A DNA stretch of 64,000 bases from an uncultured Gammaproteobacteria bacterium (GTDB lineage Bacteria > Patescibacteriota > Microgenomatia > JALYQM01). The DNA lies in assembly GCA_964403585.1 (NCBI GenBank), contig CAYOFQ010000001.1:268456-332455 (forward strand). Direction: 5' to 3'. Below, piece after piece: positions 1 to 29,102 of the stretch (its first letter is position 1; every line of letters begins with the position of its first letter). A program made the position numbers and the translations under genes. The notes beneath the pieces are model-generated. The model did not search any database. It worked only from the letters and a program-made list of their open reading frames with translations, and had not been told where the DNA came from.

Positions 1-753
1 CTGCAGCCGAACGCGGCTCACCTCGGGAGATATTGAACGTTTGGTACATCGCCGAAGGAGACTCAATACATTTAACAAAACCGGCCGCAACATCATCTAC
101 ATAGGTAAAATCGAGCGTCTCTCCTCGGACAACCCATGCAGACTTTCCATTAAGTGCCGCATCCATCAGCAATTGAGTAACTCGGTTAGCTGCATCAGCA
201 TATCCGTATACCGATGTCGGCCTAACAATAACCCATTCTTTTTTACTTAATTTAACGAAATATTCTCCGGCTGCTTTACAAGCACCATAAGAGTTAATCG
301 GGTTAAGAATGACGTCTTCAGTTTGTGGCGTCTGGGTAAAATGACCATAAGCCATACTGGAAGATGTATAAATTATTCTTCTGGCGGAAGGACAGTTTTC
401 AAAAGCTTCAAAAACCCGGAGTGTGCCGTCCATATTATGGGCGGTCATGGACTTCTCGTAATGAGGTAGGGGGCGTGCCATCGGCAACCCGGCCAAATGC
501 ACAACTATTTCGGGTCGGAACTTATCAAAGGCTTCCTGTAATGCCCGAGCATCCTGGATATTTTCATCAACAATCAGATCGGGAGTATGTGTGTACAGTA
601 ACTTGCGATGAGCAAGGGCTGTCTGGTAGTAATGCGGTTTGTCAATAAAATTAAGGTGAGCATCATAAACGCACACCTTATGTCCTTTCACCAGCAGGTC
701 TTCAACTAATTTGCTACCAATAAGTCCGGCGCCGCCGGTAACAAGTATTTTCA
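1..753 (-). CDS. NAD-dependent epimerase/dehydratase (extended SDR; dTDP-glucose 4,6-dehydratase / UDP-hexose 4-epimerase-like). The 3' end runs off the window.
   Basis: Minus-strand translation from ATG (complement of 751-753) gives MKILVTGGAGLIGSKLVEDLL..., with the Rossmann GxxGxxG motif and a YGACKAAGE catalytic YxxxK. The ORF has no stop inside the window, which is why it is absent from the ORF track. The plus-strand ORFs at 41-250 and 364-648 are antisense to it. Confidence 0.8.
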
Positions 754-876
754 TAAGATAGAAGGTATCAGGCTAAGTACGAAAATGCAAGGATCTAAAT
801 AACAAAAATAAGTTCATGCATTTACAATTCCAAATAGAGCTAATACAATAATTAGGATTTTGAAAGGCAAATAACT

Positions 877-1578
877 ATGGACAACAGCCACATGAAGTTC
901 GTTGAGGAACGAGAAAAAAATCCGCTTGTTCCGGGACATTATTATCTCTTTAATTGGATTAAACCGTTTATAAAGTCCAAGTCAAAAATTCTGGATATTG
1001 GCTGTTGGAGCGGCGCCCTGGAGATACTATTTGAAAAAGAAGATTGCCATGTAACCGGTATTGACCTCGAGCCTGAACCAATTGAATATGCCCGGAAAAG
1101 ATTCCCCAATTTTCGCTTTGAACAGGCATCTATCATTCAAAAACTCCCGTTCGAAGAAAAAGAATTCGATATTGCTCTCTATTTCATGGTTATCGAACAT
1201 ATCCCCAAAGGTACAGAGTTGACTTCATTAATTAACATCAACCGTGTTTTAAAACCGGGCGGCCAATTGTTTTTCAACACTATGCATCACAACTTGGTTT
1301 CAAACCTCATTGATCCGGCCTACTTCACGGGGCACCGCCATTACAGTCAACCGCATTTGGAATTACTACTGAAAGAAGCAGGATTTGAAATAAAAGAGGT
1401 CAAATATAATGCTGGATATGGTACAACCCTCTATATCGTAATTTTATATTTCTTTAAGCATGTCCTCCGCCGTCCCGAACCACGTAATAAGTTTTTAGAC
1501 AAGCTGATGGAAATGGACTACCGCGACAAAGGATTTGTTGAAATAGATATTCGTGCAGAAAAGATCAAAGATTTATGA
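877..1578 (+). CDS. class I SAM-dependent methyltransferase
   Basis: Motif I ILDIGCWSGALE and post-I acidic residue (GIDLE). Motif LKPGGQLFF. A 4-bp ATGA overlap with the next gene suggests an operon. Confidence 0.75.
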   Translation: MDNSHMKFVEEREKNPLVPGHYYLFNWIKPFIKSKSKILDIGCWSGALEILFEKEDCHVTGIDLEPEPIEYARKRFPNFRFEQASIIQKLPFEEKEFDIALYFMVIEHIPKGTELTSLININRVLKPGGQLFFNTMHHNLVSNLIDPAYFTGHRHYSQPHLELLLKEAGFEIKEVKYNAGYGTTLYIVILYFFKHVLRRPEPRNKFLDKLMEMDYRDKGFVEIDIRAEKIKDL

Positions 1579-2624
1579 GCGCAAAAGTGTCAATTCTGAT
1601 CGTAAACTGGAACGGCAAACACCATCTCGAAAAGTGTCTTCCAAGTTTAATGCAGATTGACTACACCAACGCTGAAATTATTCTGGTGGACAATGGTTCA
1701 ACAGACGGATCGCTGGAATATATCAGTCAAAATTTTCCTTCGGTAAAAATTATCAAAGAAGAAACCAATACCGGATTCGTGGGCGGAAATAATGACGGCA
1801 TTAACTATGCCACCGGAGACTATGTGCTTTTCCTGAATAACGATACCCGCGTCGAGCCGGATTTCTTAAGCAAACTGGTTCGGGCTCTTGATGAAGATCA
1901 ATTAATCGCCGGAGTCCAATCAAAAGTTGTCTCAATCGATGATCCGAACAGATATGACTCGGTTGGAGCGTTTCTTACCAATACAGGATTTTTATATCAT
2001 TATGGATACTTACAGCGGGTCAACCCCAAGTTTGAGCAAAGGATAAAATTATATACCGCCAAAGGCGCCTGCATGCTTTTCCGGAAATCCATTATCAATG
2101 AAGTCGGTCTATTTGACCCGGACTTTTTTGCCTATTTTGAAGAAACAGACTTCTGTCACCGCGTATTATTAAAAGGATTCCGAATTGAATATATTCCTGA
2201 ATCTGTCATTCATCATAAAATCGGCGGCACTTCCAATGCGATGAACAACGCATTTATTCAATTTCACTCGTTCAAAAACAGAATCAATTCGCACCTTAAG
2301 AATTTAGGCACAATTGAAATGGTAAAAATTCTTCCGCTGCATCTGATTTTGTGTGAAATGGCTGCCATCGTGTTTTTATTCAGGGGTAGGGCAGATCTTT
2401 TTAAAGCTCTCAATAAATCTATCTATTGGAATATTCAGAATTTTTCCCAAACAATGGCAAAACGAAAAAAGGTGCAGGCAATGCGAAAAATTTCCGATCG
2501 CGAATTGTTAAAAGATTTGAAAATATGGCCGGGGATATGCTACTTCTTTTATCTATTTGCCAAAGACATCGCCGATTATGAAGATACAATTAACATCGGA
2601 GAACAACAGCGGATTAGGGTATGA
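1575..2624 (+). CDS. family 2 glycosyltransferase (GT-A fold)
   Basis: N-terminal VSILIVNWNGKHHLEKCLPSLMQIDYTNAEIILVDNGSTDGS is the classic GT2 signature. A DxD-like FLNNDT follows. Translationally coupled on both sides. Confidence 0.85.
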   Translation: MSAKVSILIVNWNGKHHLEKCLPSLMQIDYTNAEIILVDNGSTDGSLEYISQNFPSVKIIKEETNTGFVGGNNDGINYATGDYVLFLNNDTRVEPDFLSKLVRALDEDQLIAGVQSKVVSIDDPNRYDSVGAFLTNTGFLYHYGYLQRVNPKFEQRIKLYTAKGACMLFRKSIINEVGLFDPDFFAYFEETDFCHRVLLKGFRIEYIPESVIHHKIGGTSNAMNNAFIQFHSFKNRINSHLKNLGTIEMVKILPLHLILCEMAAIVFLFRGRADLFKALNKSIYWNIQNFSQTMAKRKKVQAMRKISDRELLKDLKIWPGICYFFYLFAKDIADYEDTINIGEQQRIRV

Positions 2625-4849
2625 ACACATTTAAACTCACCAATAAATTTGTAATTATTTTTTACGCAGTTTTAGTTTCACTTTTTTATTACCAAAGCTT
2701 TTTTACGTATTTTCAGGGAGATGAATGGTACTACTTTATCCAATTCCTTCCGTACACGCATTCCTGGACCGGCATCTTCCATGCTCTGTACAAAAGTATC
2801 GCTGACACCGGGGTGGTTTCGGGAGGCGGGCATGTCACACCGATCTACAATGGGGTGTGGTTTCTCTACAATCAGCTTTTTGGACTGAATTATTTGCCAT
2901 ATATAATCTCAGCGATAGCTCTACATATTGTTAATGTCATACTGCTGTTTTTTACTGCCGAGAACCTTACCCAGAATAGACGCCTCGCCTTCCTTGCCGG
3001 ACTATTTTATGGCATTTCGGCAGCACATTTTCAGGCAATCACCTGGGTTATGGCGTTTATTCCTACCGAATTAGCCGTAACGTTTCTGTTGCTCAGTCTT
3101 TACACCCTAACTCGGCCAACCGAACCCGGCAAGATAAGTGCAAGGAACAGCACCTATAAATGGATTTTCCTATTCGCCCTGATGGCACTATTGACCAAAG
3201 AGACGATTGTCATTTTATTTGCACTCATTCCACTCGTGCTCTTTCTCACACAGAGAAAAAGCCTAACTAAAATCTTCTATCGCTATTATTTCGGGTTATT
3301 ACTTTTTTATGGCGCATTCCGTTTTGGAGTCCCCGTACTTTTCGAAAAGTTTTCTCATCAGGTTGTTCCGGCTGCGCCTCAGGCAGTTGAGCTTTCATTA
3401 TATGTTTACCGCGCTTTTACCTATCCATTAAAAACACTTGTACTAAGTTTTATCCCGTGGCGATGGATTCTTAATGCTGCTGAGTTTATTACACCCTTGG
3501 CATATCCCACCTATGGTGCCGAGAAAGAAGTACGTGGAATTAACTTCCTTACGTTTACCCAGGGTGCCGGAAGTGAACTATTCATCTATCCGCTTTCACT
3601 GCTCCTGATTTTCGCTGCCGTGTACGGATTAAAAAAAACATATCTACAAAAAGATCGCAACCCTGCTTTTAATGTCATTGTTTTTGGGGCGGCAATTATC
3701 GTATTAAGCACTTTCCCGTTACTCCTTATTTCAACGTATGCTCCGTGGTGGGGATTTGTAACGTTTATTGATTCACGGCACTTATATGTTCCTTCGATTG
3801 GTGCTGCGTTGTTATTTGCATATTTCTCTGACTATCTCGCTGATAAGTTAAACGGCATATTTAAAAAATACGGACGTGGCGGTAATAAAGTCGCCATCCT
3901 ATTTTTCATCGTACTTATTTGGGGTGTTCTCCAGTTCAGCGCCTTGTATAAAGAAATGACTCTGTATACTGAAATGGGGACGCAAAGGAAAGCCTTATTA
4001 AAAACCTTAATTGGAGATATCCCTACGTTGCCGAAGAAATCCGCCATTCTTATCGTCAGCGATACCGGCTATTATGGATTCGGACCAATTCCGCCCTTCC
4101 AAACTAATTTTGGACAGGTGTTATCGGTCATATATTACGACCGCAATCAGCTCCCAAAAGAATTTATGCAAAGCGACTTCCTGAGTAAGAATAGTTTAAC
4201 CGGGGAAGGGTACAAGGAAATCGGTGAACGAGGATTCGGATATTTTATAACAGAAGAAACCGCACTACGAACAGCCATCGATACTAATTTGCCGGCTGAA
4301 AGTATCTTCGCCTTTACCTGGAATGGCAAAACCAACACGTTAACCAATATCTCCCCCGAGATACGGAGTAAATTGGATAAAACAAAAAGCGCTCTGGGGA
4401 AATATTCCGAGTGGCAAAAAGTAACCATGGAAGAAGTCAAACTCTCGGTACGGGCTCCTTCCGGTGCGATAATAACCAAAAGCCCTCCTGCAAGTCCCAA
4501 TGCGCTCGCTACTGTACGAATTGACCACGGACTTTCGCATTGGGAAGTAACAGCCTGGAAAAAAGTATTTAATATTGGAATTTATGAAGATATCTCCATG
4601 ATGAATAACTCTGATGGTATCGTAATTGACAAAGATTTTTATTATAGAAATATTAACCCGGTTATCGGGGCACCCATAACAGCAAAAGTCACCACAACAG
4701 GAAAATCAATGAAGTACTTTATTCCAACCCTGGTGCCGAATACAATAATCGAAGTAACTGCGGTAGGGGTTCCTTCAGAATTGAACAAGGAAGATAAAAA
4801 TACTGAAGAAATCATCTCTTTATTGAGATATCCGGATAGTAGTAATTAG
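2621..4849 (+). CDS. polytopic membrane protein, putative GT-C fold glycosyltransferase (PMT/ArnT-like) with a C-terminal extracytoplasmic domain
   Basis: About 12 hydrophobic segments in the first ~440 aa. An acidic DE-like motif follows TM1 (FQGDEWYYF). The soluble C-terminal ~300 aa are not hydrophobic. Sits inside the glycosylation operon. Confidence 0.5.
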   Translation: MNTFKLTNKFVIIFYAVLVSLFYYQSFFTYFQGDEWYYFIQFLPYTHSWTGIFHALYKSIADTGVVSGGGHVTPIYNGVWFLYNQLFGLNYLPYIISAIALHIVNVILLFFTAENLTQNRRLAFLAGLFYGISAAHFQAITWVMAFIPTELAVTFLLLSLYTLTRPTEPGKISARNSTYKWIFLFALMALLTKETIVILFALIPLVLFLTQRKSLTKIFYRYYFGLLLFYGAFRFGVPVLFEKFSHQVVPAAPQAVELSLYVYRAFTYPLKTLVLSFIPWRWILNAAEFITPLAYPTYGAEKEVRGINFLTFTQGAGSELFIYPLSLLLIFAAVYGLKKTYLQKDRNPAFNVIVFGAAIIVLSTFPLLLISTYAPWWGFVTFIDSRHLYVPSIGAALLFAYFSDYLADKLNGIFKKYGRGGNKVAILFFIVLIWGVLQFSALYKEMTLYTEMGTQRKALLKTLIGDIPTLPKKSAILIVSDTGYYGFGPIPPFQTNFGQVLSVIYYDRNQLPKEFMQSDFLSKNSLTGEGYKEIGERGFGYFITEETALRTAIDTNLPAESIFAFTWNGKTNTLTNISPEIRSKLDKTKSALGKYSEWQKVTMEEVKLSVRAPSGAIITKSPPASPNALATVRIDHGLSHWEVTAWKKVFNIGIYEDISMMNNSDGIVIDKDFYYRNINPVIGAPITAKVTTTGKSMKYFIPTLVPNTIIEVTAVGVPSELNKEDKNTEEIISLLRYPDSSN

Positions 4850-4868
4850 CGTTATAAAGGAAAAATAT

Positions 4869-5540
4869 ATGCCTGAAAAATTTGAAGAATCCTATTTCCA
4901 GGGATGGTATAAGAAAGCCGTCGGAAGCTTTACTAATGATGATTTGGAGCTATCCAAGCGCTGGTTTTATTCCTGGATTAAGAAATTAGATGAATATATC
5001 CCGATGAAGAACGGAAACGGGGTCAAGGTTTTGGAGATCGGGTGTTCAATCGGTGCCGTCTCAAATATCCTCACCGAGCGGGGGTTTGACGTCTGGGCAA
5101 CTGACGTTTCCGAATATGCAGTTGAAAATGCCAAAAAGTTGACTCCAAAGGCAAAATTTTCCGTTTTAGACATACAGGAAGGCATCAACTTATCCGAAAA
5201 ATTTGATATAATCATCGCTTTCGAAGTAGTCGAACATCTGGAGAATCCTGAAAAGGCTATAAAAAACATGTATAATGGGCTGCAAGAAGGGGGAAAGGTA
5301 GTAATTTCAACACCATATCCGCATAAATGGAACTTTAGAGATCCAACGCATATTAACGTAAAGTATCCACACGAATGGGTAAAAATAATGGAAGAAACCG
5401 GGTTCAAAAACGTGAAGTATCATGAATTTACCCTGTTACCGTTTTTCTATAAATTTAATAAGAATTTTCAATTAATTATTCCGTTTGCCATTCCGTTTCC
5501 TTACATCAATAATCCCATATATTTTATAGGTGAAAGATGA
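4869..5540 (+). CDS. class I SAM-dependent methyltransferase
   Basis: Motif I VLEIGCSIGAVS. Acidic residue in ATDVSE. LQEGGKVVIST motif. Confidence 0.75.
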   Translation: MPEKFEESYFQGWYKKAVGSFTNDDLELSKRWFYSWIKKLDEYIPMKNGNGVKVLEIGCSIGAVSNILTERGFDVWATDVSEYAVENAKKLTPKAKFSVLDIQEGINLSEKFDIIIAFEVVEHLENPEKAIKNMYNGLQEGGKVVISTPYPHKWNFRDPTHINVKYPHEWVKIMEETGFKNVKYHEFTLLPFFYKFNKNFQLIIPFAIPFPYINNPIYFIGER

Positions 5541-8500: not shown

Positions 8501-8935
8501 TGCGATCATCCCACAGCAGAACGGGCCCAGGCCGAATCCACATTGCGGATAGAAAATATCGAAATAATCAAACTTAATATTCCCGAAATTATTTTCCATA
8601 AAGCACAGCCATCTAAGCAGGATAAAGGATCAATTTCCTATACTACCAACAATACAACTGCATATCAGGCGGAACTCAAAAATAGTGGAACACCCACGTT
8701 TGTTACCTTGCACGAGTCCTTTACTCCCAATTGGCAAATTAAGGATGGCAGCGCAACTAAATTTATGGTTAATGGGTACGCCAATGGCTGGCTGTTTGAA
8801 TCTAAAAAAGAAGGTTTTATAACAATTGGCTATGCGATTGAAAATTTAGTTCGCAACGGTTTTATTGTTTCAGGATTAAGTTTTGGAGCCATTGCAATAT
8901 ACTTACTTGTCAAACGTAACAAATATGAAAAATAG
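5537..8935 (+). CDS. large (1132 aa) polytopic membrane protein, putative polysaccharide/teichoic-acid-type GT-C glycosyltransferase (YfhO/AftD-like architecture)
   Basis: N-terminal ~430 aa have many TM helices, then a long extracytoplasmic region, then a single C-terminal TM (LSFGAIAIYLLV). It has the same architecture as the 688-aa protein at 11239. ATGA overlap with the upstream methyltransferase. Confidence 0.45.
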   Translation: MNNSSNKNRIRDILILCLIGLIPLLWFRGNEIILGHDAGLTLSPQSHFQDRLHSWTERFGFGSDQSYAIPGFFIHGLESLVSTIGFNVQYNQKITFIFWFLLPGLTMYYFASRLEKKYNLSHYALPVSVLYMVNHFLLQGWFVAERTKFSLYAALPLVLAFLFEWQENKQASTVKTALKIAVTFFFLNGLASIPLFGGVIVTLIAYSLFYFYESFSWTSGKRFIQLVFTTVIASIFLQAYWLLPYVDFLSSSYGASVDFFGGMQGVLGWIQYISQNSSFTNLFRLQGVPEWYQNPSHPYAGNFLNNPVLITVGYLIPIMAFLPLLLAKDIRVRKMLLFFSALALFSMIFIAGSHPPFGLIYIALAKYVPGFIAFRTPFYKFAPALWISYAILMGYTIQWLYHWLRNRQYLAANVFYAAVIAGVLLYSYPFLTGSFFDYIKGERSMRVTVPEYIYQYANWSDQKDNQGRRTLVLPAPSRDSNVEAYTWGYWSLAPLTTLLTNSQVINLNFYMSKTEKEMVSQLYKMIETNDPAWINLAQFLRIDTFVLRRDFAWDLKESPTKNPESYANFVALPELQLAQKFDKWEVYELKKSNTKQNRLTVDANISYYSGANVSAASSLPGFTPSQPLYKAGDTPAADAKILQLASNIYVQPKCIMCDLQWKYIDVNTYMPLLTRGSIFYPLIAGREQKEEANAQFDVNSKMQFYANRTLKNFMAFKKAFDEKENEVTRKAIIDEYVSSMDKFKKTMAEFEEKAIQQNDLLYDINAILHAHRRELINQLDSYVKKSENMRANKEFETLSNAFTILTAIQSRLDSQIWQTGDSIHKKFSMIIPQAGDYTMYYRSNENGAISEELNFSINDREYTVTPTQNTSNWYSLGSVALKDGLNQINLTQNQTNKYEGTASAELVSSYSGGCFKSNKIFGEKNDIFRIMFDQTQVVGTKDFFIGFISDPQELNPFYAKDYLNAHPQMTKYSTDFPVADDDGFYMIICDHPTAERAQAESTLRIENIEIIKLNIPEIIFHKAQPSKQDKGSISYTTNNTTAYQAELKNSGTPTFVTLHESFTPNWQIKDGSATKFMVNGYANGWLFESKKEGFITIGYAIENLVRNGFIVSGLSFGAIAIYLLVKRNKYEK

Positions 8936-9290
8936 ATATACATCATTCATTATTCATTTACTGGGCTGGATACAAAAAAACAGCTTAAAAATAGTAGTTG
9001 CAATCGCTATCGAAGCCTTGGTCCTGGTATTTTTTAGTTTGCCGTACTTAAACATAATTGGAGTGTATCTTGCGTTCATACCATATCTTGTTATGCTGGC
9101 GCTAATTAGTAAACTTTTCCAACCCGGCAAAGAGTTTTTCCTGATTACGGCACTCGCTCTATTCGGAGTCTCGTTACTATTACAATTATCCTCGCTGACT
9201 TTTGCCAATGAGATTCTTGGAAATATTAGCTATTTTTTCATTTGGACGTACCTTATTCTGTCACTTAGTGAGCTGCGAAAGACAACCTAG
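8925..9290 (+). CDS. small hydrophobic membrane protein (about 120 aa), hypothetical
   Basis: The ORF has 3-4 predicted TM helices. The ATG at 8925 overlaps the stop of the upstream gene (atgaaaaatag). The track start at 8883 would overlap the previous CDS by 53 nt. Confidence 0.4.
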   Translation: MKNRYTSFIIHLLGWIQKNSLKIVVAIAIEALVLVFFSLPYLNIIGVYLAFIPYLVMLALISKLFQPGKEFFLITALALFGVSLLLQLSSLTFANEILGNISYFFIWTYLILSLSELRKTT

Positions 9291-9343
9291 CGACAGTATT
9301 CTTTATTTTTAATTATAACTATGATATCTACAAAGGAGACCCT

Positions 9344-10507
9344 ATGAATGACACAAGACCATTTATTCACTTCACCCAGCCATTATTTGGCGAAGAAGAG
9401 AAAGCCGAGGTCCTCAGTGCCCTGGATTCCGGTTGGGTCACTCTTGGTCCGCGCACCAAGCAGTTCGAAGAAGATTTTGCAGCCTATGTTGGATCTAAAT
9501 ATGCTGTTGCTGTTAGCTCAAACACGGCCGGACTCTATCTTTCATTACTCGTCGCAGGCATAAAACCGGGCGATGAAGTTATCACAACACCATTTACGTT
9601 CGTTGCGACGTTAAACACGATTGTCCAGGCTGGAGCCGTTCCTGTGCTGGTGGATATCGACGAGCAAACATTCAACATTGACCCGGCTAAAATTGAAGAG
9701 AAGATCACTGCTAAAACCAAAGCAATCATGCCGGTACACTACGCAGGTTTAGCTGTCGATATGGATAAAATCCTGGAAATCGCCAAAAAGCACAACTTAA
9801 AAGTAATCGAAGATGCTGCTCATGCCGCAGGCGCCAGCTATAAAGGGAAAAAAATCGGTACTCACGGAGACTTGGCTGTTTTCTCTTTTCATCCGGTCAA
9901 AAATATGTCCACAGGCGATGGTGGAATGATCACAACCAACAACGAAGAATACGCCACAAAACTGTCAATGCTGCGATTACACGGCATGAGTAAAGATGCC
10001 TGGAAGCGACATACCGCTACCGGTACTTGGAGATATGACGTCGAAGTTCCGGGATTTAAATTCAACATGACCGATATCTCTGCCGCCTTAGGTATTCATC
10101 AACTGAAAAAACTGGATGGCTTCATTGCCACCAGAAAAAAGTACGCTAAAATGTACGACCATGCCTTTGCCAATGTCAAGGAAATTACCGTCCCATATAT
10201 TCCCCCCAAGGAAGAACATATTTATAGCTTGTATACGATTAGAATCGACACTGCTAACCTGAAAATTTCCCGGGATGACTTTGTTGAAAAACTAAAGGAG
10301 GCCGGCATCGGCGTGAGCGTTTATTTTATTCCGGTCCATTATTTTACCTACTACAAAAACACGTTCGGGTATAAAGAAGGGGATTTTCCGGTGAGCGAAA
10401 AAGTATTTGAAGAAATAATGTCCCTTCCGCTATATCCGCGCATGAAAGAAGATGATGTAACCTATGTACAACAGACACTTCTTCGGCTTATAGAGGAGAA
10501 CAAATAA
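9344..10507 (+). CDS. DegT/DnrJ/EryC1/StrS-family PLP-dependent sugar aminotransferase (WecE/ArnB-like; 4-amino-4,6-dideoxyhexose forming)
   Basis: PVHYAGLAVDMDKILEIAKKHNLKVIEDAAHA and FSFHPVKNMSTGDGGMI (PLP lysine) closely match the family. An SD-like AAAGGAG lies 7 nt upstream. Confidence 0.9.
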   Translation: MNDTRPFIHFTQPLFGEEEKAEVLSALDSGWVTLGPRTKQFEEDFAAYVGSKYAVAVSSNTAGLYLSLLVAGIKPGDEVITTPFTFVATLNTIVQAGAVPVLVDIDEQTFNIDPAKIEEKITAKTKAIMPVHYAGLAVDMDKILEIAKKHNLKVIEDAAHAAGASYKGKKIGTHGDLAVFSFHPVKNMSTGDGGMITTNNEEYATKLSMLRLHGMSKDAWKRHTATGTWRYDVEVPGFKFNMTDISAALGIHQLKKLDGFIATRKKYAKMYDHAFANVKEITVPYIPPKEEHIYSLYTIRIDTANLKISRDDFVEKLKEAGIGVSVYFIPVHYFTYYKNTFGYKEGDFPVSEKVFEEIMSLPLYPRMKEDDVTYVQQTLLRLIEENK

Positions 10508-11224
10508 ATGTACAGTTGGCGATTTGACGAGTTTGATACTTCAATATTTGGCTTGAGAACAGCTAAGATTAAGGATATTCAAGTTGACAAATCGTCATCT
10601 GCCTTCGAGATTGTCGGGCAGCTTCAGCGGGAATTAAAAGATAATCAGATAGAGTATGCAGTGTTCCGGGCAGCAGCCTCAGACTATGCACTTATACAGG
10701 CACTGGAGCAAAGTGGATTTATCATGGTGGATGGTTTGCTGAATTTAGTGCGGAGACTTGACGACTATCAACGTCAGGAAACTCCCGCAGTTCGTGCTGC
10801 CACCATCGACGATCTTCCTCAACTACGCAGAATCGCTGAAGTATCCTTTGACCGGAATCGGGTCTTTAATGATCCGGCATTAAATCATGCAGACGCCAGA
10901 CAGATGTATGTGCAGTGGATAGAAAATTCATTGAGTGGGGCGCAGGCAGATGCTGTCCTGGTATGTGGGAAAACTGAACTGGAGGGAATGATCACCTTGC
11001 AAAAAGACGGACACATTCCACTTATTGCTGTTTTACCGGAATATAGAGGTCAAGGACTCGCGAAAAGGTTTGTGACGGCCGGATTTAATCAGTTCCAGGA
11101 ATGGGGGGTACTGGAATCAGCAATTGAAACGCAAATCGCCAATATTCCTGCTATACGCTCTTATCATGCCTGCGGATTTAAAATCGTCGATTCACGCTAC
11201 ACGTTTCGCTGGTTATCAAAATAA
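10508..11224 (+). CDS. wecD: dTDP-4-amino-4,6-dideoxy-sugar N-acetyltransferase (WecD/RffC-like GNAT)
   Basis: Collinear similarity to E. coli WecD along the whole length: WRFDEFDTSIFGL, YVQWIENSLSG, the GNAT motif-A segment AVLPEYRGQGLAKRFV, and the C-terminal TQIANIPAIRSYHACGFKIVDSRYTFRW. Starts 1 nt after the aminotransferase stop. Confidence 0.7.
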   Translation: MYSWRFDEFDTSIFGLRTAKIKDIQVDKSSSAFEIVGQLQRELKDNQIEYAVFRAAASDYALIQALEQSGFIMVDGLLNLVRRLDDYQRQETPAVRAATIDDLPQLRRIAEVSFDRNRVFNDPALNHADARQMYVQWIENSLSGAQADAVLVCGKTELEGMITLQKDGHIPLIAVLPEYRGQGLAKRFVTAGFNQFQEWGVLESAIETQIANIPAIRSYHACGFKIVDSRYTFRWLSK

Positions 11225-11238
11225 GGTAGGCGACTATT

Positions 11239-13305
11239 ATGCATAAACTCAAAGAGTTTCTTCCATACATACTGGCCGGTTGGGTAATTATCTGGGTATT
11301 CAGTAATTGGATTCTCTCACCAGCAACACTTGGGGGCGACTTTAATTATATAAGCTACCAGCATTATACAGTCATCAACCAGCGGCCGTATATCTGGGAT
11401 CCTCGTTTTAATAACAGCTTCGGACAGGTCACTTTATATACTCTGCCGTTTTGGTACTATACACATTTTTTCAATGCGCTAACCTATGTTTTTCATGACC
11501 CGTTCTTACTGCATAAATTAATTTTTCTGTGGCCAATTGTAATAATCGGTTCGCTTTCAATGTGGGTACTTGCCCGTGAGATGTTTACTAATCGCTGGGC
11601 CAGAGCCACAGCCATAATTCTCTACATGACCAATTCATATTTCATGATGATAACGGGGGGCGGGCAGGTTGGGGTTGCGCTTGCGTATTGTTTAGCGCCA
11701 CTTGTGATGGCATCTTTTATTAAAACTGTACACTTGATAAATGATCAGGCACCCCCTCGGGTCAAAACTAAATACCATCTCATTTCAGCATTACTAACTG
11801 CCATCTTCATCACCCTCGATATTCGGTTGGCGTTCCTCGTCCTCGGTGCCGTAATAGTACTCTTGTTCGCCAATCTGCTCTTTCGAAAAGGGAAAAGAGC
11901 AATCATAACCGACTATGCCATTCTCGCCATAATTGGAACTATCGTCATTGGGGCATTCCATTCATTTTGGATAATTCCGTCACTCGCAGTTCAAAGTGTC
12001 AGTCTGCCGAGAGGATATGATTCACAGGACTCGGTAAAGTTTTTTAGTTTTGCCCGCTTTGCACATACTTTTTCCTGGATGCATCCCAATTATCCTGCCA
12101 ATCGTTTCGGCGTAGTTAAAGAGATAGTCGGGTACTCCCTCATTTTTGCGATTCTGGCTTTTTGGGGAACGAAATCCCGGCGGAGAAAGTTCCTGTATTT
12201 TGCCCTTGTCTCATTGGGAGCAGCCTTTTTGGCTAAAGGAACAAATCCGCCGTTTGGTGAAGCATATCAATGGATGTTTTCTCATGTTCCAAGTTTCAGC
12301 TGGTTTAGAGACTCAACTAAATTCTTACTATTGGTCAGCATTGGCTACAGTATTTTGATCGGTAAAACCATTGAAGAGTTTTTCAACCGGTCACACGCCA
12401 AGGCACTACTTTTAGTTGCTGTTATTGGTATTTTTATATCATGGTATCCAACATACACGCATCAATTAAAAGGGACGCTTGCGTATCGAACAATTCCTGC
12501 CGACTATCAGGAAATAAAACAAGTATTCATAAAAGATCGCAACTTTGGCAGGGTACTATGGGTGCCAAACCGGGAAATATACGGCTACTATGACCTGAAA
12601 CATCCTGAGATTAATTTATCCGAACTGCGGGACCCGACATCTTGCTTTCCGGTATTTTGCCCTAAACAGCCCCCGCAAAAATTTGATGACAGAAAAAACT
12701 ACAGTTTTGCTGACAGGTTAAAAGAGATCGATGATCAAACGGTGTTTTTGAATGATCCGTACACCCAGGAATTATTCAGAGATTTGGCTATTAATTATAT
12801 TGTGGTGGTAGCTGATCACGATCGGGAAATCTACATCCACGATCAAAAATATAACGGCGAAATAAAAGAATACTATCGAAAAAAATTTGATGCTATCCCG
12901 TGGATATCTAAAGTCCCTACAAAATCAGCAGGTCTGATCTACAAAACCCAAACTCCCGGTGCTTTGTTTACTCAGTCCGGAATTGGTGCCGATATCAATT
13001 TAAACTACACCATGGTTAATCCGGTTAAGTACACCGTTAAGCTGCACGACAACCAGGCTCCGCTTATTTTCAACCAAAGTTATCATGAGTCATGGCAACT
13101 CAAGCAGGGCAAAAATACTGTTACCCCGTACTCGAATAAACTTGGCATGAATATGTATCCAACCAGTGGCCTTACAGCCAATCAAGAGATAACACTGGAA
13201 TTCAAAGGACAGGAGTATGCAGATTTTGGATTAAATATTTCATTTATTACCATTATTTTTACCTTGTTGGGAATAGGTATGCTGCATATGGGGAAAAAGA
13301 CATGA
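11239..13305 (+). CDS. polytopic membrane protein (688 aa) with extracytoplasmic C-terminal domain and terminal TM; putative GT-C/YfhO-like glycosyltransferase
   Basis: Multiple TM helices in aa 1-400, a soluble domain, and a C-terminal hydrophobic helix (ISFITIIFTLLGIGML). It resembles the 1132-aa protein in architecture. Confidence 0.45.
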   Translation: MHKLKEFLPYILAGWVIIWVFSNWILSPATLGGDFNYISYQHYTVINQRPYIWDPRFNNSFGQVTLYTLPFWYYTHFFNALTYVFHDPFLLHKLIFLWPIVIIGSLSMWVLAREMFTNRWARATAIILYMTNSYFMMITGGGQVGVALAYCLAPLVMASFIKTVHLINDQAPPRVKTKYHLISALLTAIFITLDIRLAFLVLGAVIVLLFANLLFRKGKRAIITDYAILAIIGTIVIGAFHSFWIIPSLAVQSVSLPRGYDSQDSVKFFSFARFAHTFSWMHPNYPANRFGVVKEIVGYSLIFAILAFWGTKSRRRKFLYFALVSLGAAFLAKGTNPPFGEAYQWMFSHVPSFSWFRDSTKFLLLVSIGYSILIGKTIEEFFNRSHAKALLLVAVIGIFISWYPTYTHQLKGTLAYRTIPADYQEIKQVFIKDRNFGRVLWVPNREIYGYYDLKHPEINLSELRDPTSCFPVFCPKQPPQKFDDRKNYSFADRLKEIDDQTVFLNDPYTQELFRDLAINYIVVVADHDREIYIHDQKYNGEIKEYYRKKFDAIPWISKVPTKSAGLIYKTQTPGALFTQSGIGADINLNYTMVNPVKYTVKLHDNQAPLIFNQSYHESWQLKQGKNTVTPYSNKLGMNMYPTSGLTANQEITLEFKGQEYADFGLNISFITIIFTLLGIGMLHMGKKT

Positions 13306-13529
13306 AAATTCAGGATATCGCTTTTATCGTCATATTAATCATCATACTTTTGCTGAGAGGAAAAGCTGCCTGGTATGCGGGAATAGTAGCAGGTGTTGCA
13401 GCCGGAACACTCTTCCTTCTCTCCAACCTCTTTACCGCTCAGCGTTTTACCTGGTATAGCGCGGCATTTTTTACGGTGTTTGTACTAAAAGAATTGTACT
13501 GTACACTATTTAAGAATGAATCTAAATAA
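13302..13529 (+). CDS. small two-TM membrane protein, hypothetical
   Basis: 75-aa ORF, two hydrophobic helices. Overlaps the upstream stop (ATGA) and overlaps the downstream start by 14 nt, suggesting translational coupling inside the glycosylation operon. Confidence 0.4.
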   Translation: MKIQDIAFIVILIIILLLRGKAAWYAGIVAGVAAGTLFLLSNLFTAQRFTWYSAAFFTVFVLKELYCTLFKNESK

Positions 13530-14670
13530 AACTAGAATTGTCGCTGCTCTTCTCTGGGGTGCACTGTGTATCAGTTGTTTCACTATTATCTACCAGAATC
13601 GGGTATGGTATACCACGTTCAATTACTGGGAAAATTTTGCCGAGCTTAAGCGGGTTTTTCTTAACTCCCAATACGTTAATAAACATGCCACCGGCTATAT
13701 ACCCGACGAAACAGCCTACTCATATGCCGGCGGCGCGCTTATTCAAGGGACCAGCCCCATATTGGTCTTACCTGAAGCACCTCCGTTGGGAAAATATATG
13801 ATCGGCCTCTCAGCCGTCCTTTTCAATAATCCCAACATTATTATTATGCTTGTGTGTGGAGTTTTAGGCTTAGTGTACATGTATCTGATTGGGAAACAGA
13901 TATATCATTCTAAGATAACTGCTCTTGTTGCAGTACTTTTACTTACCTTGGAACCCCTGTACCGTAATCAGTTTGCCTACGTCCCGCTTTTTGATATTGC
14001 CCAGGTTTTCTTTCTGCTCGCGTCACTGTATTATTTCACCAAATCGCACATCTCGGAAAAGCATCCGCTACGATACCTGATCATCGCCCAGATTTTTGTC
14101 GGCCTCTTTATCTCAACCAAGTTCTATATGTCAGGGCTCACGATTTTAGGGGCCTTCTTCCTGGTCCTGCTTTACAACAAAGATGGTAAACGAATGAAAT
14201 ATCTCATTCTAACTTCCATCATTCCCGTTATAATTTTGTACGCCACCTACATCCGTGTCCTTATTATCGGTTATCCGTTCAACAAATTTCTGGGCATTCA
14301 ACGCTGGATATTTAACTTCTGGACCGGTAAGCTGAACTTGCCGTTCACTGTTTGGGCACTTGTGTTTGCCAATCAGTGGTACGTCTGGTGGGGTGATCAG
14401 CCGATCTTATCCGATTCACAGTGGCGTCTGACCTGGCCGCTCGTAACAGCACTCTCTTTTTTGACCGTCGGACTGTATCTATTCAAGCACCTGTCGAAGA
14501 AAAAAGAGCTCGAAGTTCTATTAGCCTACTCCGTCACCTATGGTGCATTCGCCAGTATTGGCCAGACCTCTGCCAGATACCTGGTTATCTACCTTCCGGT
14601 GTTGTATCTGGTTGCATTCTATCTTGTCGAAACTTATGTACGCAGAGCTTTACGCCGAACTCAAGTCTGA
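13516..14670 (+). CDS. GT-C fold glycosyltransferase (PMT_2/ArnT-like family), membrane protein
   Basis: 384 aa with about 9 TM helices. The first extracytoplasmic loop carries a DE motif (GYIPDETAYSYAGG), as in GT39/GT83 enzymes. Confidence 0.5.
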   Translation: MNLNKTRIVAALLWGALCISCFTIIYQNRVWYTTFNYWENFAELKRVFLNSQYVNKHATGYIPDETAYSYAGGALIQGTSPILVLPEAPPLGKYMIGLSAVLFNNPNIIIMLVCGVLGLVYMYLIGKQIYHSKITALVAVLLLTLEPLYRNQFAYVPLFDIAQVFFLLASLYYFTKSHISEKHPLRYLIIAQIFVGLFISTKFYMSGLTILGAFFLVLLYNKDGKRMKYLILTSIIPVIILYATYIRVLIIGYPFNKFLGIQRWIFNFWTGKLNLPFTVWALVFANQWYVWWGDQPILSDSQWRLTWPLVTALSFLTVGLYLFKHLSKKKELEVLLAYSVTYGAFASIGQTSARYLVIYLPVLYLVAFYLVETYVRRALRRTQV

Positions 14671-14684
14671 GATATAATCCCAGC

Positions 14685-18032: not shown

Positions 18033-18989
18033 ATGAAATCTAAAAAAATAGCTTTAATTTTATCCTCAATTTTCGCTGTCGCACTGGTGTCAGGTACGTT
18101 TCTTTTCCTGTACTTTAATCAGGATCAAAACCAGGTACCACCGAGCAGCGCGTATACGTTACCGTCCGCTCAGACATTCAAAGTTGATCCCTTCCCGGTT
18201 CCAGCATCAGGCATCTACACCAGTGAAAAAAACGGTGACTGGGATTTTGCTTCAAACAAAAATGAAGGTTGGATTAAAGTCCGCAATAATGCCACAACCA
18301 CACGCAAAATAGGTTGGCAGATCGACTGTCGACCCGATCAGCCGGGAGGATCATCCTGCTGGGATAATGCTGCTAACCCGCGGGGCGAATTATCCGTGGC
18401 ACCCGGCGAAGCCTGGGAAGTTCTGGTCGGTCCGCAGTGTTTCCCGTATCAGTTGGATTTCACCGGTCCGGATTTTGGCCGCTTAATGACACAGGACACG
18501 AGCAAGTGTAATGTCACTAGCACGCCAAGCCCGTCACCGACTCCAACTCCATCTCCTTCACCATCAGTCTCTCCGTCGTCTACACCGTCCCGCAGCCCCA
18601 GCCCCAGTGCCTCACCTTCCAGAAGTCCCTCGGCTTCACCAAGTCACACTGCTATTCCATCACCTAGCATAACCGCTTCACCGAGTCCAACCATAACCGC
18701 GACACCCAGCCCGTCTCCAACAAGTACCCCTCCCGTAGGCGGACCCTCAAATACACCTACCCCAAGTCCAACAGCAACACCTACCGCAACTCCCGCTGTC
18801 AGCTCAACACCGACGCCAACTCCTGTTGCCGGCGCTTCCTCAACTCCTGAGCCCGGTGATCGGGCCGTTGCCGATGCCACTGCTCTGCCTGAAGCCGGTA
18901 TCAGTAACGGAGTTCTGTTCACAGTGATCGGTGGCGTATCATTGCTTATCTCCGGAGTATTCGCCATCCTGAAAAAGAAGTATTACTAA
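18033..18989 (+). CDS. cell-surface protein with N-terminal signal anchor, Pro/Ser/Thr-rich linker and C-terminal sortase-type sorting signal (LPEAG + hydrophobic helix + KKKYY)
   Basis: N-terminal hydrophobic segment. A ~110-aa SPSP/TPTP low-complexity linker. C-terminal LPEAG, then GISNGVLFTVIGGVSLLISGVFAIL, then KKKYY. This is the canonical tripartite LPXTG-like architecture. Confidence 0.6.
   Translation: MKSKKIALILSSIFAVALVSGTFLFLYFNQDQNQVPPSSAYTLPSAQTFKVDPFPVPASGIYTSEKNGDWDFASNKNEGWIKVRNNATTTRKIGWQIDCRPDQPGGSSCWDNAANPRGELSVAPGEAWEVLVGPQCFPYQLDFTGPDFGRLMTQDTSKCNVTSTPSPSPTPTPSPSPSVSPSSTPSRSPSPSASPSRSPSASPSHTAIPSPSITASPSPTITATPSPSPTSTPPVGGPSNTPTPSPTATPTATPAVSSTPTPTPVAGASSTPEPGDRAVADATALPEAGISNGVLFTVIGGVSLLISGVFAILKKKYY

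Positions 18990-26604: not shown

Positions 26605-29102
<2,498 letters not shown>

Follow-up and report, generated by a model that had tools for sequence, protein, structure and literature searches.

The left end of the window (the whole 64,000-nucleotide stretch of DNA that was analysed) most likely carries the larger part of a conserved envelope-glycan gene cluster of an uncultured, small-genome Patescibacteria bacterium. Eleven closely packed plus-strand genes (877-14670) are faced by a divergent SDR gene on the minus strand (2-754). The plus-strand genes encode two SAM-dependent methyltransferases, a family-2 glycosyltransferase, a DegT aminotransferase, a WecD-like GNAT, and four large polytopic and two small membrane proteins:

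2..754, minus strand: SDR, divergent extended-SDR gene of which the 5' part (251 of 319 codons) lies in the window, GalE-like nucleotide-sugar epimerase type
821..849, plus strand: promoter-like site between the divergent genes (intergenic region of 122 nt), TTTACA-17-TACAAT; candidate only
877..1578, plus strand: MT1, class I SAM-dependent methyltransferase, 233 aa
1575..2624, plus strand: GT2, family-2 (GT-A fold) glycosyltransferase, 349 aa
2621..4849, plus strand: M742, predicted GT-C-fold membrane glycosyltransferase, new family distantly tied to PMT_2
4869..5540, plus strand: MT2, class I SAM-dependent methyltransferase, 223 aa
5537..8935, plus strand: M1132, AftD-like predicted GT-C glycosyltransferase
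8925..9290, plus strand: s121, small protein with four predicted TM helices (translation, hydropathy)
9344..10507, plus strand: AT, PLP-dependent DegT-family sugar aminotransferase of the ArnB/PseC/perosamine-synthase (C4) neighbourhood
10508..11224, plus strand: GNAT, two-domain WecD-like N-acetyltransferase, 238 aa, with GNAT Pfam domains
11239..13305, plus strand: M688, short AftD/MmpA-like predicted GT-C glycosyltransferase
13302..13529, plus strand: s75, small protein with 2-3 TM helices (translation)
13516..14670, plus strand: M384, predicted GT-C glycosyltransferase of the PMT_2 family (ArnT/PMT clan)

Neighbouring plus-strand genes overlap by 4, 4, 4, 11, 4 and 14 nt or are otherwise separated by gaps of 0-53 nt, which bears out the co-directional, translationally coupled cluster of the original prediction. 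MT1 and GT2 share 4 nt, the MT2 stop overlaps the start of M1132, GNAT starts directly after the AT stop codon, and s75 overlaps its neighbours on both sides (the stop of M688 and the start of M384). The alaS gene starts at 14685, only 14 nt downstream of the end of M384, which leaves the transcription unit without a defined 3' end. At the other side the SDR gene leaves the window; in L001 the complete protein has 319 aa. The cluster also goes on there, with genes for a 499-aa polytopic protein and a 651-aa protein as well as a third methyltransferase and a GT4; the 499-aa protein, directly outside the window, is a possible fifth GT-C candidate. The promoter-like site is listed as a candidate because the number of such sites in the intergenic region equals the shuffled expectation.

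Synteny was compared in 14 related loci from Patescibacteria/Microgenomates genomes. The block MT1-GT2-M742-MT2-M1132-s121-M688, together with the divergent SDR gene, occurs in the same order in at least 10 independent MAG loci, at protein identities of about 30-45%; the open reading frames are therefore not chance occurrences. The genes lie where they had been predicted, and Pfam matches agree with the families proposed for the methyltransferases, GT2, aminotransferase and acetyltransferase. The names of the homologs (Patescibacteria group, Ca. Levyibacteriota, Ca. Blackburnbacteria) suggest a Microgenomates/Levybacteria-like host within the Patescibacteria (candidate phyla radiation).

The large membrane proteins were assessed by profile searches, fold comparison and residue conservation. 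M384 (about 10 TM helices) scored 49.8 bits against PF13231 (PMT_2), passing the cut-off of 26.1. M742, in which about 11 TM helices are combined with an extracytoplasmic alpha/beta domain of 270 aa, had no match of its own in Pfam or NCBIfam, and 6 of its 24 relatives matched PMT_2 weakly. The top Foldseek matches of its AF2 model (pLDDT 86.8) were STT3, ArnT, AglB, DPY19, Pmt4 and AftB, all with a probability of 1.0 at modest TM-scores of 0.31-0.43. M688 combines a TM core with a soluble domain of about 240 aa and a TM helix at the C terminus; its sole curated family match was NCBIfam MmpA (50.7 bits, E 1e-13, below the cut-off of 210), and among 32 relatives PF11847 was matched by four and YfhO (PF09586) by one. 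The best structural match of its AF2 model (pLDDT 91.6) was AftD (6w98, E 2.7e-8, TMq 0.50), followed by STT3, AglB, AftA, PglB and ArnT. In M1132 the TM core is N-terminal, the extracytoplasmic region spans about 670 aa and a TM anchor forms the C terminus; residues 826-897 gave weak beta-sandwich-type matches. The protein scored 22 bits against PF11847 (GT-C_AftD), under the cut-off of 26, and 6 of its 10 orthologs matched this family (best E 2.7e-8). As judged from hhalign (probability 100, E 1.6e-43, residues 6-598 against the M688 family), M1132 and M688 are paralogs.

The acidic residues that come straight after TM1 vary little or not at all: D34-E35 in M742 (as an invariant D34-E35-W36), D37 in M1132 (invariant H36-D37) and D34 in M688 (at least 90% conserved, with K333, R357, D358 and K361 invariant); M384 has D64-E65 after TM1. 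These residues count in favour of GT-C because their position is that of the GT-C catalytic motif, and D41 of AftD is essential. MFS transporters came up in both fold searches with probabilities below 0.45 and TM-scores of about 0.1. The Pfam match of M384, the fold matches of M742 and M688 and the paralogy of M1132 thus support the original view that the large proteins, here all four, are GT-C-fold glycosyltransferases and not transporters. The number of five given then has to be corrected: the window holds four, as did the accompanying list, and the two small TM proteins that had been included are not GT-C. The description as YfhO-like applies loosely, through a single M688 relative, AftD being the consistent match. 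Of the assignments proposed by HMM, that of M384 succeeded, and M742, M1132 and M688 reached no cut-off. No M384 ortholog was detected in the 14 related loci, and the PMT_2 protein carried by L004 and L008 is a different one; by this comparison M384 belongs to the accessory, variable part of the cluster.

The sugar module consists of AT, GNAT and the SDR. AT is a member of PF01041 (E 5e-137) and scored 402 bits against the NCBIfam PseC model (cut-off 423.5) and 389 bits against ArnB (cut-off 631), well above the 278 (cut-off 375) and 233 bits (cut-off 435) for two WecE-type models (E 1e-83 and 5e-69), all of these scores being below cut-off. Among solved structures ArnB provided the four best relatives (324 bits), with 265 bits for perosamine synthase, 182 for H. 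pylori PseC (2fn6) and 167 for WecE. By these scores AT is closer to ArnB and PseC (UDP-sugar C4 transaminases) than to WecE. GNAT scored 103 bits against NCBIfam WecD (cut-off 219), and its best PDB match was TDP-fucosamine acetyltransferase (2fs5, E 4e-10, residues 54-231 on 58-231, a nearly full-length alignment). Related loci retain the AT-GNAT pair, which is consistent with formation of a 4-amino sugar followed by N-acetylation. Of the sugar that had been suggested, the part '4-acetamido-4-deoxy' is thus supported, with 'dTDP' and '4,6-dideoxy' unproven, and the AT scores speak against the proposed WecE/WecD-type chemistry leading to dTDP-Fuc4NAc or dTDP-Qui4NAc.

The SDR matches the Pfam Epimerase family (E 7e-36); its best NCBIfam scores, both far under the cut-offs, were 95 bits for GalE and 91 for RmlB. 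Its closest solved relatives are UDP-glucose 4-epimerases (7ys8 and 4zrm), and its TSSSMAYG...YGACK motif aligns with their TSS...Y..K, with TSSSMAYG at the catalytic Ser/Thr position. Of the earlier label 'dehydratase/epimerase' the second half therefore appears to fit rather than the first. An ortholog was found in 8 of the 14 related loci.

MT1 matches Methyltransf_25, _23 and _11 (E about 1e-17) and reached no NCBIfam equivalog; syntenic orthologs are present in L003, L008-L011 and L015. MT2 matches Methyltransf_23 (E 4e-23) and has orthologs immediately 5' of M1132 in nearly all related loci. GT2 matches Glycos_transf_2 (E 1e-29). An assignment as a lipid-sugar synthase of the GtrB, ArnC or DPMS type was rejected, on generic NCBIfam and PDB scores (GalT1 57, DPMS 27, GtrB 22.6 and ArnC 21.8 bits, the last against a cut-off of 529) and a single hydrophobic C-terminal segment, which peaks near residue 250 and is conserved in orthologs. 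A GtrB-type GT2 (307-310 aa, two TM helices at the C-terminal end) is present in L003, L004, L005 and L009 and supplies the polyprenyl-phosphate-sugar synthase needed by the model presented below.

Counterparts of s121, with an invariant P-Y within an LPYxN motif, follow the M1132 ortholog in L003-L011 and L015. Homologs of s75 were found in L004, L005, L006, L008 and L009; in L004, L005 and L009 they adjoin the GtrB-like GT2, downstream of M688, and none was detected in L003, though this locus carries the GtrB-like GT2. Neither protein matched a Pfam family (for s121 including GtrA and SMR) or a flippase family. The search for rmlA and a flippase suggested earlier, run on the window and 7.4 kb upstream, yielded neither an rmlA nor a recognisable flippase (Wzx, ABC, MATE, GtrA or SMR). 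The same region contained no rmlB or other 4,6-dehydratase forming a 4-keto sugar, no GtrB-like gene and no initiating phosphoglycosyltransferase; essential steps would therefore have to be encoded elsewhere or performed by unrecognised proteins.

Taken together, the cluster most likely makes an amino sugar, with the four membrane-embedded GT-C transferases building or decorating a surface glycan. The best overall explanation, to which we assign a probability of roughly 0.65, is a GT-C envelope-glycan assembly system using lipid-linked donors, an uncharacterised variant of known polyprenyl-phosphate/GT-C systems for extracytoplasmic glycosylation. In the cytoplasm, the ArnB/PseC-like AT and the WecD-like GNAT would convert a nucleotide-4-keto-sugar into a nucleotide-4-acetamido-4-deoxy-sugar, and the GalE-like SDR would interconvert sugar epimers. 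The enzyme families in this step follow from the matches, the substrates are putative, and the relatives of the enzymes point to UDP rather than dTDP as the nucleotide. GT2, and the GT4 just upstream of the window, would attach sugars to intermediates linked to polyprenyl phosphate, at the inner membrane face, where the two methyltransferases may O-methylate sugars. The lipid-linked sugars would then be flipped to the outer face, possibly helped by the conserved small proteins s121 and s75, which are candidates on grounds other than homology. Outside, the four GT-C enzymes, of three lineages (M742; M1132 and M688 as AftD-like paralogs; M384 as a PMT_2 protein), would draw on the lipid-linked donors and polymerise or decorate a glycopolymer, lipoglycan or glycoprotein of the cell surface; the fold and the acidic loop-1 residues are found in the proteins and models, and donor, acceptor and product are predicted.

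Which nucleotide sugar is made was considered for three known routes. A PseB/PseC/PseH-like or bacillosamine-like route, yielding a UDP-2,4-diacetamido-2,4,6-trideoxyhexose as glycan building block, is possible, if doubtful, and would refine the sugar step of the preferred model and not its GT-C part. AT reaches 95% of the PseC equivalog cut-off; PseH is a GNAT, as is the acetyltransferase of the cluster. A 330-aa PseB-like Polysacc_synt_2 dehydratase lies inside the cluster of L004, L007, L013, L014 and L016, in L013 and L016 together with the AT-GNAT pair. Against this, no PseB-like gene was found in the window and 7.4 kb upstream, PseG, PseI and PseF were not seen, the PDB score of AT with H. 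pylori PseC is far below that with ArnB, and the dehydratase and the RmlD-like reductases beside it in relatives also suit an FnlA/FnlB-type 6-deoxy-HexNAc route, for which a transaminase is unneeded. The dehydratase of the relatives is of the UDP-GlcNAc type and not RmlB, which, with rmlA and rmlB missing from the window and 7.4 kb upstream, an epimerase-like enzyme as the only SDR and the lower WecE scores, makes an ECA-like dTDP pathway (RmlA/RmlB, WecE, WecD) supplying dTDP-Fuc4NAc or dTDP-Qui4NAc to the glycan unlikely, in spite of WecD being both the best family and the best solved relative of GNAT and of the significant WecE-type matches of AT. We consider an Arn-like modification of a lipid or polymer still less probable. 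Here, an N-acylated UDP-4-amino-4-deoxy-pentose would be passed by GT2 to polyprenyl phosphate, flipped by ArnE/F-like proteins and attached by an ArnT-like GT-C. ArnB as each of the top four solved relatives of AT, the PMT_2/ArnT family membership of M384, ArnT among the fold matches of M742 and M688, and two small multi-TM proteins that could take the flipping role fit such a scheme. However, AT misses the ArnB equivalog cut-off widely and GT2 that of ArnC; an ArnA-type decarboxylase/formyltransferase and an ArnD deformylase were not found; the T-S-E motif of decarboxylases is absent from the SDR, whose best alignment is with GalE; s121 and s75 match neither SMR nor EamA; and M384 is not kept with the cluster in relatives. 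To our knowledge, Patescibacteria do not make lipid A, which also counts against the Arn-like scheme.

Protein acceptors were considered among the products of genes further along the window:

18033-18989: PST-rich protein, 318 aa
33-55 kb: giant LamG/lectin proteins

O-glycosylation by the GT-C enzymes of such Ser/Thr/Pro-rich surface proteins or giant LamG/lectin proteins is rather unlikely. Actinobacterial and eukaryotic PMTs O-glycosylate proteins, M384 belongs to PMT_2, M742 has a PMT-like D-E motif, STT3 and Pmt4 are among the fold matches, and the window encodes membrane-anchored PST-rich proteins, one with 41% P/S/T and locally 42 of 50 residues. However, these genes and the giant ones are separated from the cluster by the housekeeping genes alaS, HD hydrolase and aspS and lie outside the conserved synteny, the large extracytoplasmic domains of the AftD-like members suit glycan acceptors better, and nothing in the sequence identifies the acceptor. 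The earlier statement that this is not a classical O-antigen locus is supported. That the AftD/MmpA-like proteins are scaffolds or lipid-delivery factors instead of transferases seems very improbable. Such a role is implied by the name 'trehalose lipid delivery protein' that NCBIfam gives to MmpA, the sole curated match of M688, and enzymatic activity of MmpA has not been demonstrated; yet the authors studying MmpA themselves suggest that a glycosyltransferase role is possible, M688 has AftD as best structural match, and M688 and M1132 have invariant or nearly invariant charged residues at GT-C active-site positions. Nor is a mycolate pathway known in Patescibacteria, a further point against this reading.

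The preferred model, assembly of an envelope glycan by GT-C enzymes with lipid-linked donors, would follow the logic by which the Gtr and CsbB-GtcA-YfhO systems work and mycobacterial arabinan is assembled, carried out here by families that are not yet curated. The kinds of components are familiar, and three of the four GT-C transferases and both small membrane proteins are without a curated family match. The framework for extracytoplasmic GT-C glycosylation has been described (Kelly et al. 2024, PMC11127046; Rismondo/Gruendling 2018, PMC5836110, and 2021, PMC8035078). As in the three-component transmembrane glycosylation systems Gtr (GtrA/GtrB/Gtr*, Shigella and Salmonella) and CsbB-GtcA-YfhO (Bacillus and Listeria), GT-C proteins with an acidic loop-1 motif are combined in a single operon with a GT2 and small multi-TM proteins, and related loci have a typical GtrB-type GT2 beside a small TM protein. 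The cluster differs in having four GT-C proteins from three lineages instead of one, a GT2 that is not of the GtrB type, small proteins that match neither GtrA nor SMR, and an additional amino-sugar module with two to three methyltransferases. The aftD-tmaT-mmpA-cgp_3166-mtrP locus of the arabinan/lipoglycan machinery of Mycobacteriales is also comparable: M1132 is a long AftD-like GT-C with a large extracytoplasmic region, its shorter AftD-like paralog M688 may be set beside MmpA and a class I methyltransferase beside MtrP, and cytoplasmic glycosyltransferases belong to the same locus. Unlike this machinery, the window proteins stay under the AftD Pfam threshold and give no sign of the three CBMs or the ACP-binding bundle of AftD, and the cluster, in a Patescibacterium, is without the TmaT acyltransferase, the DPA pathway and mycolates. 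The ArnB-ArnC-ArnE/F-ArnT pathway for L-Ara4N has several counterparts in the cluster: the C4 aminotransferase is ArnB-like, the amino sugar would be N-acylated, and a GT2 stands alongside small TM proteins and a GT-C of the PMT_2/ArnT family; the cluster differs in the lack of ArnA and ArnD, in ArnB and ArnC matches below the equivalog thresholds, in acetylation by a GNAT instead of formylation, and in that lipid A is not expected as acceptor. Finally, in the ECA Fuc4NAc branch (WecE/WecD) and the Pse and bacillosamine branches (PseB/C/H, PglF/E/D) a nucleotide-4-keto sugar is processed first by an aminotransferase and then by an N-acetyltransferase, as is predicted for the cluster, whose GNAT shares the two-domain layout of WecD. 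The cluster departs from these branches by having no dehydratase and no match above an equivalog cut-off.

The gene map of the glycan cluster was drawn from the ORF listing, family scans and a comparison with an overlapping public contig (L001). The large polytopic membrane proteins are named by their length in amino acids, and the two small transmembrane (TM) proteins are called s121 and s75.

Genes of the glycan cluster (window coordinates, strand, product)
2-754, minus, short-chain dehydrogenase-type protein (SDR), running past the left end of the window; full length 319 aa
877-1578, plus, SAM methyltransferase MT1
1575-2624, plus, family-2 glycosyltransferase (GT2)
2621-4849, plus, large membrane protein M742
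4869-5540, plus, SAM methyltransferase MT2
5537-8935, plus, large membrane protein M1132
8925-9290, plus, small membrane protein s121 (4 TM)
9344-10507, plus, DegT-family aminotransferase (AT)
10508-11224, plus, WecD-like N-acetyltransferase (GNAT)
11239-13305, plus, large membrane protein M688
13302-13529, plus, small membrane protein s75 (2-3 TM)
13516-14670, plus, large membrane protein M384

By this map, the gene content given in the original prediction was correct except for one count: four large polytopic proteins are encoded in the window, not five. Six of the cluster junctions are overlaps of 4-14 nt and the remainder are gaps of 0-53 nt. The next gene, alaS (14685-16676, plus), starts 14 nt past M384; its product of ~663 aa is short for an AlaRS, and a promoter-like site at 14649-14678 falls within the 3' end of M384, ahead of alaS. 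Scanning for promoters and terminators gave site counts equal to the shuffled expectation and no operon boundaries; the one notable promoter-like match, to be read against these counts, was at 821-849, between the divergent SDR and MT1 genes. Nothing was matched when the window was scanned for Rfam families and tRNA genes.

The four large membrane proteins all have the hydropathy layout of GT-C glycosyltransferases, that is, an N-terminal core of ~8-13 TM helices with a following or interleaved extracytoplasmic domain. M384 passed the cut-off of PF13231 (PMT_2; 49.8 bits versus 26.1). Direct sequence searches of the four proteins against the PDB gave no matches, and profile searches based on the family alignments of M742 and M688 yielded chance-level matches only, so that structure prediction was needed. 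M688 itself had no Pfam match; among its relatives GT-C_AftD was matched in 4 of 32 and YfhO in 1 of 32, together with other families of the GT-C clan, and the sole curated-family match of M688 was MmpA (50.7 bits, E 1e-13, under the cut-off of 210). The AlphaFold2 model of M688 (pLDDT 91.6, pTM 0.91) shows helices from residue 2 to 406, after which come an alpha/beta domain and, at the C-terminus, a TM helix. The best match among solved structures was AftD (E 2.7e-8, TMq 0.50), followed by STT3, AglB, AftA, PglB and ArnT. M1132 aligned with the M688 family across its first ~600 residues (hhalign, probability 100, E 1.6e-43), and PF11847 was matched by 6 of 10 M1132 orthologs. For M742, no family match was obtained, and PMT_2 was weakly matched in 6 of 24 relatives. 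Its model (pLDDT 86.8; helices 6-466, then an alpha/beta domain) matched STT3, ArnT, AglB, DPY19, Pmt4 and AftB at probability 1.0 and TM 0.3-0.43, with E ~1e-4 and TM 0.34-0.43 for STT3 and ArnT.

The catalytic Asp or Glu of GT-C enzymes sits just past TM1, and D41 of AftD is essential. Acidic residues directly past TM1 were found in all four proteins: D34 and E35 of M742 are invariant in 24 sequences, D37 of M1132 is invariant in 10, D34 of M688 is conserved in at least 90% of 32 sequences, and D64-E65 of M384 were read from the single sequence. The loop that carries these residues would be extracytoplasmic. Transporters (MFS and others) appeared in both fold searches as low-probability noise (probability <0.45, TM-score ~0.1), and on these values a transporter reading of the membrane proteins, which would have told against the original prediction, was rejected. 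Pfam, the fold matches and the acidic residues adjacent to TM1 thus bear out the GT-C assignment made in the original prediction, for four proteins in the window rather than five. M742, M1132, M688 and M384 belong to the GT-C fold superfamily and are predicted to use polyprenyl-(di)phosphate-linked sugar donors at the outer membrane face. Direct profile comparisons gave low probabilities (M742 family versus M688 family, E 2e-3, probability 13%; M384 versus either family, probability at most 3%), and for this reason the GT-C proteins are regarded as three separate lineages at the level of sequence.

A further candidate lies outside the window. M499, a polytopic protein of 499 aa, is encoded ~250 bp left of the window start and downstream of SDR (L001 5629-7128, minus). 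No other cluster protein is as conserved: its orthologs share 50-78% identity, and it is duplicated in most related loci; an exhaustive search returned at least 1370 representative clusters at E<=1e-3. M499 matched no Pfam or NCBIfam family, and a narrow M499 profile gave no matches to GT-C families. A broad profile gave weak, positionally sensible hhalign matches to the M742 and M688 families (E 1e-4 to 3e-4): the N-terminus (GvDxW...THK) resembles the DE-motif region of the M742 family (E 3e-4), and the C-terminus resembles FRDSTKF and the soluble region of the M688 family (E 1e-4). These similarities are suggestive, not proof, of M499 being a further GT-C enzyme.

Conservation of the cluster was assessed by comparing the window proteins with six-frame ORFs of 14 related loci. 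The order MT1-GT2-M742-MT2-M1132-s121-M688-(s75), with SDR and M499 on the divergent side, recurs in at least 10 loci at 30-45% identity. The AT-GNAT pair lies upstream in most relatives, beside a GT4 and an M499 paralog, and between s121 and M688 in the present genome; compared with most relatives, the pair has moved. No ortholog of M384 was found in the 14 loci, and two of them (L004 and L008) carry a different PMT_2 protein. Left of the window the cluster continues with M499, a third methyltransferase, a 651-aa protein and a GT4. Cluster proteins are present on a 1.57-Mb NCBI contig and on Logan assemblies, and the named homologs are from the 'Patescibacteria group', Ca. Levyibacteriota and Ca. 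Blackburnbacteria. The label 'uncultured Gammaproteobacteria' carried by several MAGs is taken as a placeholder.

The sugar substrate was addressed through AT, GNAT and SDR. AT is a clear DegT-family enzyme (E 5e-137) that reached no NCBIfam equivalog cut-off. PseC came closest, with a narrow miss (402.1 versus 423.5), and the scores were 388.7 versus 631 for ArnB and 278 versus 375 (PRK11706) and 232.8 versus 434.85 (TIGR02379) for the WecE-type models. Among solved structures the best four were all ArnB (up to 324 bits), with perosamine synthases at 265 and WecE at 167. The best relative of GNAT was WecD, aligned over both domains, and neither of two WecD equivalog scores was reached (103.4 versus 219; 75.3 versus 195.1). 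The prediction of an N-acetylated 4-amino sugar is supported by these two enzymes, the nearest relatives of AT being C4 transaminases, and a nucleotide-4-acetamido-4-deoxy sugar is the likely product of the pair. The dTDP/WecE route and the dehydratase that went with this prediction were not supported. SDR aligned best to UDP-glucose 4-epimerases and scored 90.8 against a cut-off of 365 for RmlB. At the motif position, 4,6-dehydratases have T-D-E and decarboxylases T-S-E; the motif of SDR is TSSSMAYG...YGACK, and on this epimerase-type motif and the epimerase relatives the reading of SDR as a 4,6-dehydratase was rejected. Neither the window nor the 7.4 kb upstream of it yielded rmlA (glucose-1-phosphate thymidylyltransferase), rmlB or any other dehydratase gene, and the nucleotide carrier is more probably UDP than dTDP.

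The known pathways can be weighed on the same evidence. The enterobacterial common antigen (ECA) dTDP-Fuc4NAc pathway comprises RmlA, RmlB, WecE and WecD; GNAT has its closest relative there, and the cluster meets no equivalog score for either WecE or WecD. The best structural relatives of AT belong to the Arn (L-Ara4N) pathway; the cluster lacks equivalogs of ArnB, ArnC, ArnA, ArnD and ArnT; the Arn formyltransferase, decarboxylase and deformylase were not found, and M384 matches at the level of the PMT_2 domain only. The pseudaminic-acid-type front end (PseB/PseC/PseH) comes nearest by score, the cluster being narrowly below the PseC cut-off, but no PseB-type (Polysacc_synt_2) dehydratase gene is present in the window. 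Five related loci (L004, L007, L013, L014 and L016) do carry a PseB/FnlA-like Polysacc_synt_2 4,6-dehydratase, and L013 and L016 also carry AT-GNAT. RmlD-like reductases were observed together with this dehydratase in the same five loci; in L004, dehydratase and reductase genes occupy 4586-5578 and 6713-7630. Loci with the Polysacc_synt_2 dehydratase mostly lack an ortholog of the GalE-like SDR, a distribution that is partly complementary.

The small membrane proteins and GT2 were considered as candidates for donor synthesis and flipping. s121, with four predicted TM helices and an invariant Pro-Tyr, follows M1132 in essentially all related loci. A Pfam scan of nine s121 homologs, with E values of up to 5 allowed, gave no relevant family, GtrA and SMR included; s121 and s75 matched neither GtrA, SMR/EamA nor any other Pfam family. 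By size (4 TM and 2-3 TM, respectively), topology and conserved synteny, s121 and s75 may be a flippase or partners of the GT-C enzymes. The GT2 of the window is a family-2 enzyme of the generic type, in which a single hydrophobic segment is conserved; its scores (22.6 bits versus GtrB, 27 versus DPMS, and 21.8 versus ArnC with a cut-off of 529) and its topology rule out a GtrB/ArnC/DPMS-type enzyme. In four related loci (L003 18486-19406; L004 19447-20370; L005 11345-12283; L009 18546-19478), a GtrB-like polyprenyl-phosphate GT2 is encoded close after M688. It has 307-310 aa and the layout typical of GtrB, ending in two TM helices, and a homolog of s75 adjoins it in L004, L005 and L009. The window has kept s75 and has no homolog of this GT2. 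The lineage thus has the expected donor synthase, which in the present genome must be encoded elsewhere, if at all.

Further genes in the window were inspected for family matches. A protein of 683 aa (24551-26602, plus) has ~12 TM helices and a C-terminal TPR block, the TPR families being its sole matches; its architecture resembles that of O-antigen-ligase/polymerase-TPR or TMTC-like GT-C proteins. Two membrane-anchored proteins (18033-18989 and 59370-60290, both plus) contain 41% and 35% Pro/Ser/Thr, locally 42 and 39 of 50 residues; neither matched a family, and both are possible targets of glycosylation. Three giant secreted or anchored proteins are encoded on the plus strand. The 3593-aa protein (33247-44028) has a weak C-terminal match to an H-type lectin domain, under the Pfam cut-off. 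In each of the 1581-aa (44098-48843) and 1927-aa (49132-54915) proteins, six LamG_3 repeats, which are concanavalin-like, occur together with a DUF2341 domain. A 209-aa protein (32475-33104, minus), encoded divergently from the 3593-aa protein, has a type IV pilin-like N-terminus (GFSLVELLIVLTIMGII). The window also encodes a 740-aa protein (18997-21219, plus) with the unusual combination of a class II Asp/Asn/Lys-type tRNA synthetase core and a C-terminal B3/4 domain, and V/A-type ATPase catalytic subunits (26895-30587, minus; ATP-synt_ab assigned from ORF 26895-28250 only).

From the enzyme families, folds, conserved motifs and synteny, the following scheme can be proposed. AT, GNAT and SDR would tailor nucleotide sugars in the cytoplasm; GT2 and GT4 would glycosylate polyprenyl-phosphate-linked intermediates, to be methylated by the methyltransferases; the intermediates would then be flipped to the outer face, where the four GT-C enzymes would act extracellularly, extending or decorating a glycan or glycoprotein of the envelope. 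In a bolder version, the cluster would be an assembly line specific to Patescibacteria, in which uncurated GT-C families build a complex, methylated amino-sugar lipoglycan or wall polysaccharide outside the cell from polyprenyl-phosphate sugars, with M499 as a new GT-C enzyme or polymerase, s121 and s75 as a new partner or flippase, and an ancestry shared with the mycobacterial aftD-mmpA-mtrP locus. We consider this version unlikely, at roughly one chance in five; if true, the shared ancestry could help to explain the still-puzzling mycobacterial locus.

Abundant and for the most part uncultured, Patescibacteria have reduced genomes and are often attached to other cells; their surface coat is mostly uncharacterised. 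In the library searched, no relevant literature combined Patescibacteria or the candidate phyla radiation with GT-C enzymes or glycosylation. A genome of ~1.6 Mb here devotes at least 15 kb to four or five GT-C enzymes, an amino-sugar module and methyltransferases; this investment in a small genome and the arrangement kept across many relatives indicate a surface glycan of importance to the lineage. The cluster defines protein families that curated collections lack, namely those of M742, M499 (at least 1370 representative clusters), s121 and s75. It also supplies distant, compact relatives of AftD and MmpA, which may prove more tractable than their mycobacterial counterparts. In its general mechanism the system is as expected, and the value lies in cataloguing families and in hypotheses, not in a new principle; the significance would be greater should M499, s121 and s75 prove to be novel functional classes, or the connection with the mycobacterial locus genuine.

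Among known systems, the closest structural relative is AftD, a protein of ~1,300-1,400 aa with three carbohydrate-binding modules and a C-terminal ACP-binding helical bundle. The window proteins lack these modules and the bundle and miss the Pfam threshold: M688, of 688 aa, has just one soluble domain, which is small, and one helix at the C-terminus, and M1132, of 1132 aa, shows only weak signs of a beta-sandwich at 826-897 and likewise has one TM helix at its C-terminus. Against the PF11847 gathering score of 26, M1132 scored 22.0 bits and M688 gave no match, and some orthologs passed (best E 2.7e-8 in the M1132 family, 6/10, and 1.1e-5 in the M688 family, 4/32); judged by these scores, M1132 and M688 are relatives of the AftD family, not members. 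The 64-kb window and the 7.4 kb upstream of it yielded no part of the decaprenyl-phospho-arabinose pathway (UbiA-type phosphoribosyltransferase, DprE1/E2). The Mycobacteriales locus aftD-tmaT-mmpA-cgp_3166-mtrP combines a long AftD, the shorter AftD-like MmpA, a predicted glycosyltransferase and a methyltransferase, and the cluster has the same types of parts, with M1132 (5537-8935) as the long AftD-like protein and M688 (11239-13305) as the short one that matches MmpA. In the three-component Gtr and CsbB-GtcA-YfhO glycosylation systems (PMC11127046, PMC5836110, PMC8035078), a GT-C transferase is encoded alongside a GtrB/CsbB-type GT2 with two C-terminal TM helices and a GtrA-, SMR- or MATE-type flippase; the cluster has four GT-C genes, s121 and s75 are of suitable size for a flippase, and such a GT2 is absent from the window but present in the relatives L003, L004, L005 and L009. 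The cluster shares its logic with these systems and with mycobacterial arabinan assembly by many GT-C enzymes, and represents an uncharacterised variant, specific to its lineage, of a known type of glycosylation system.
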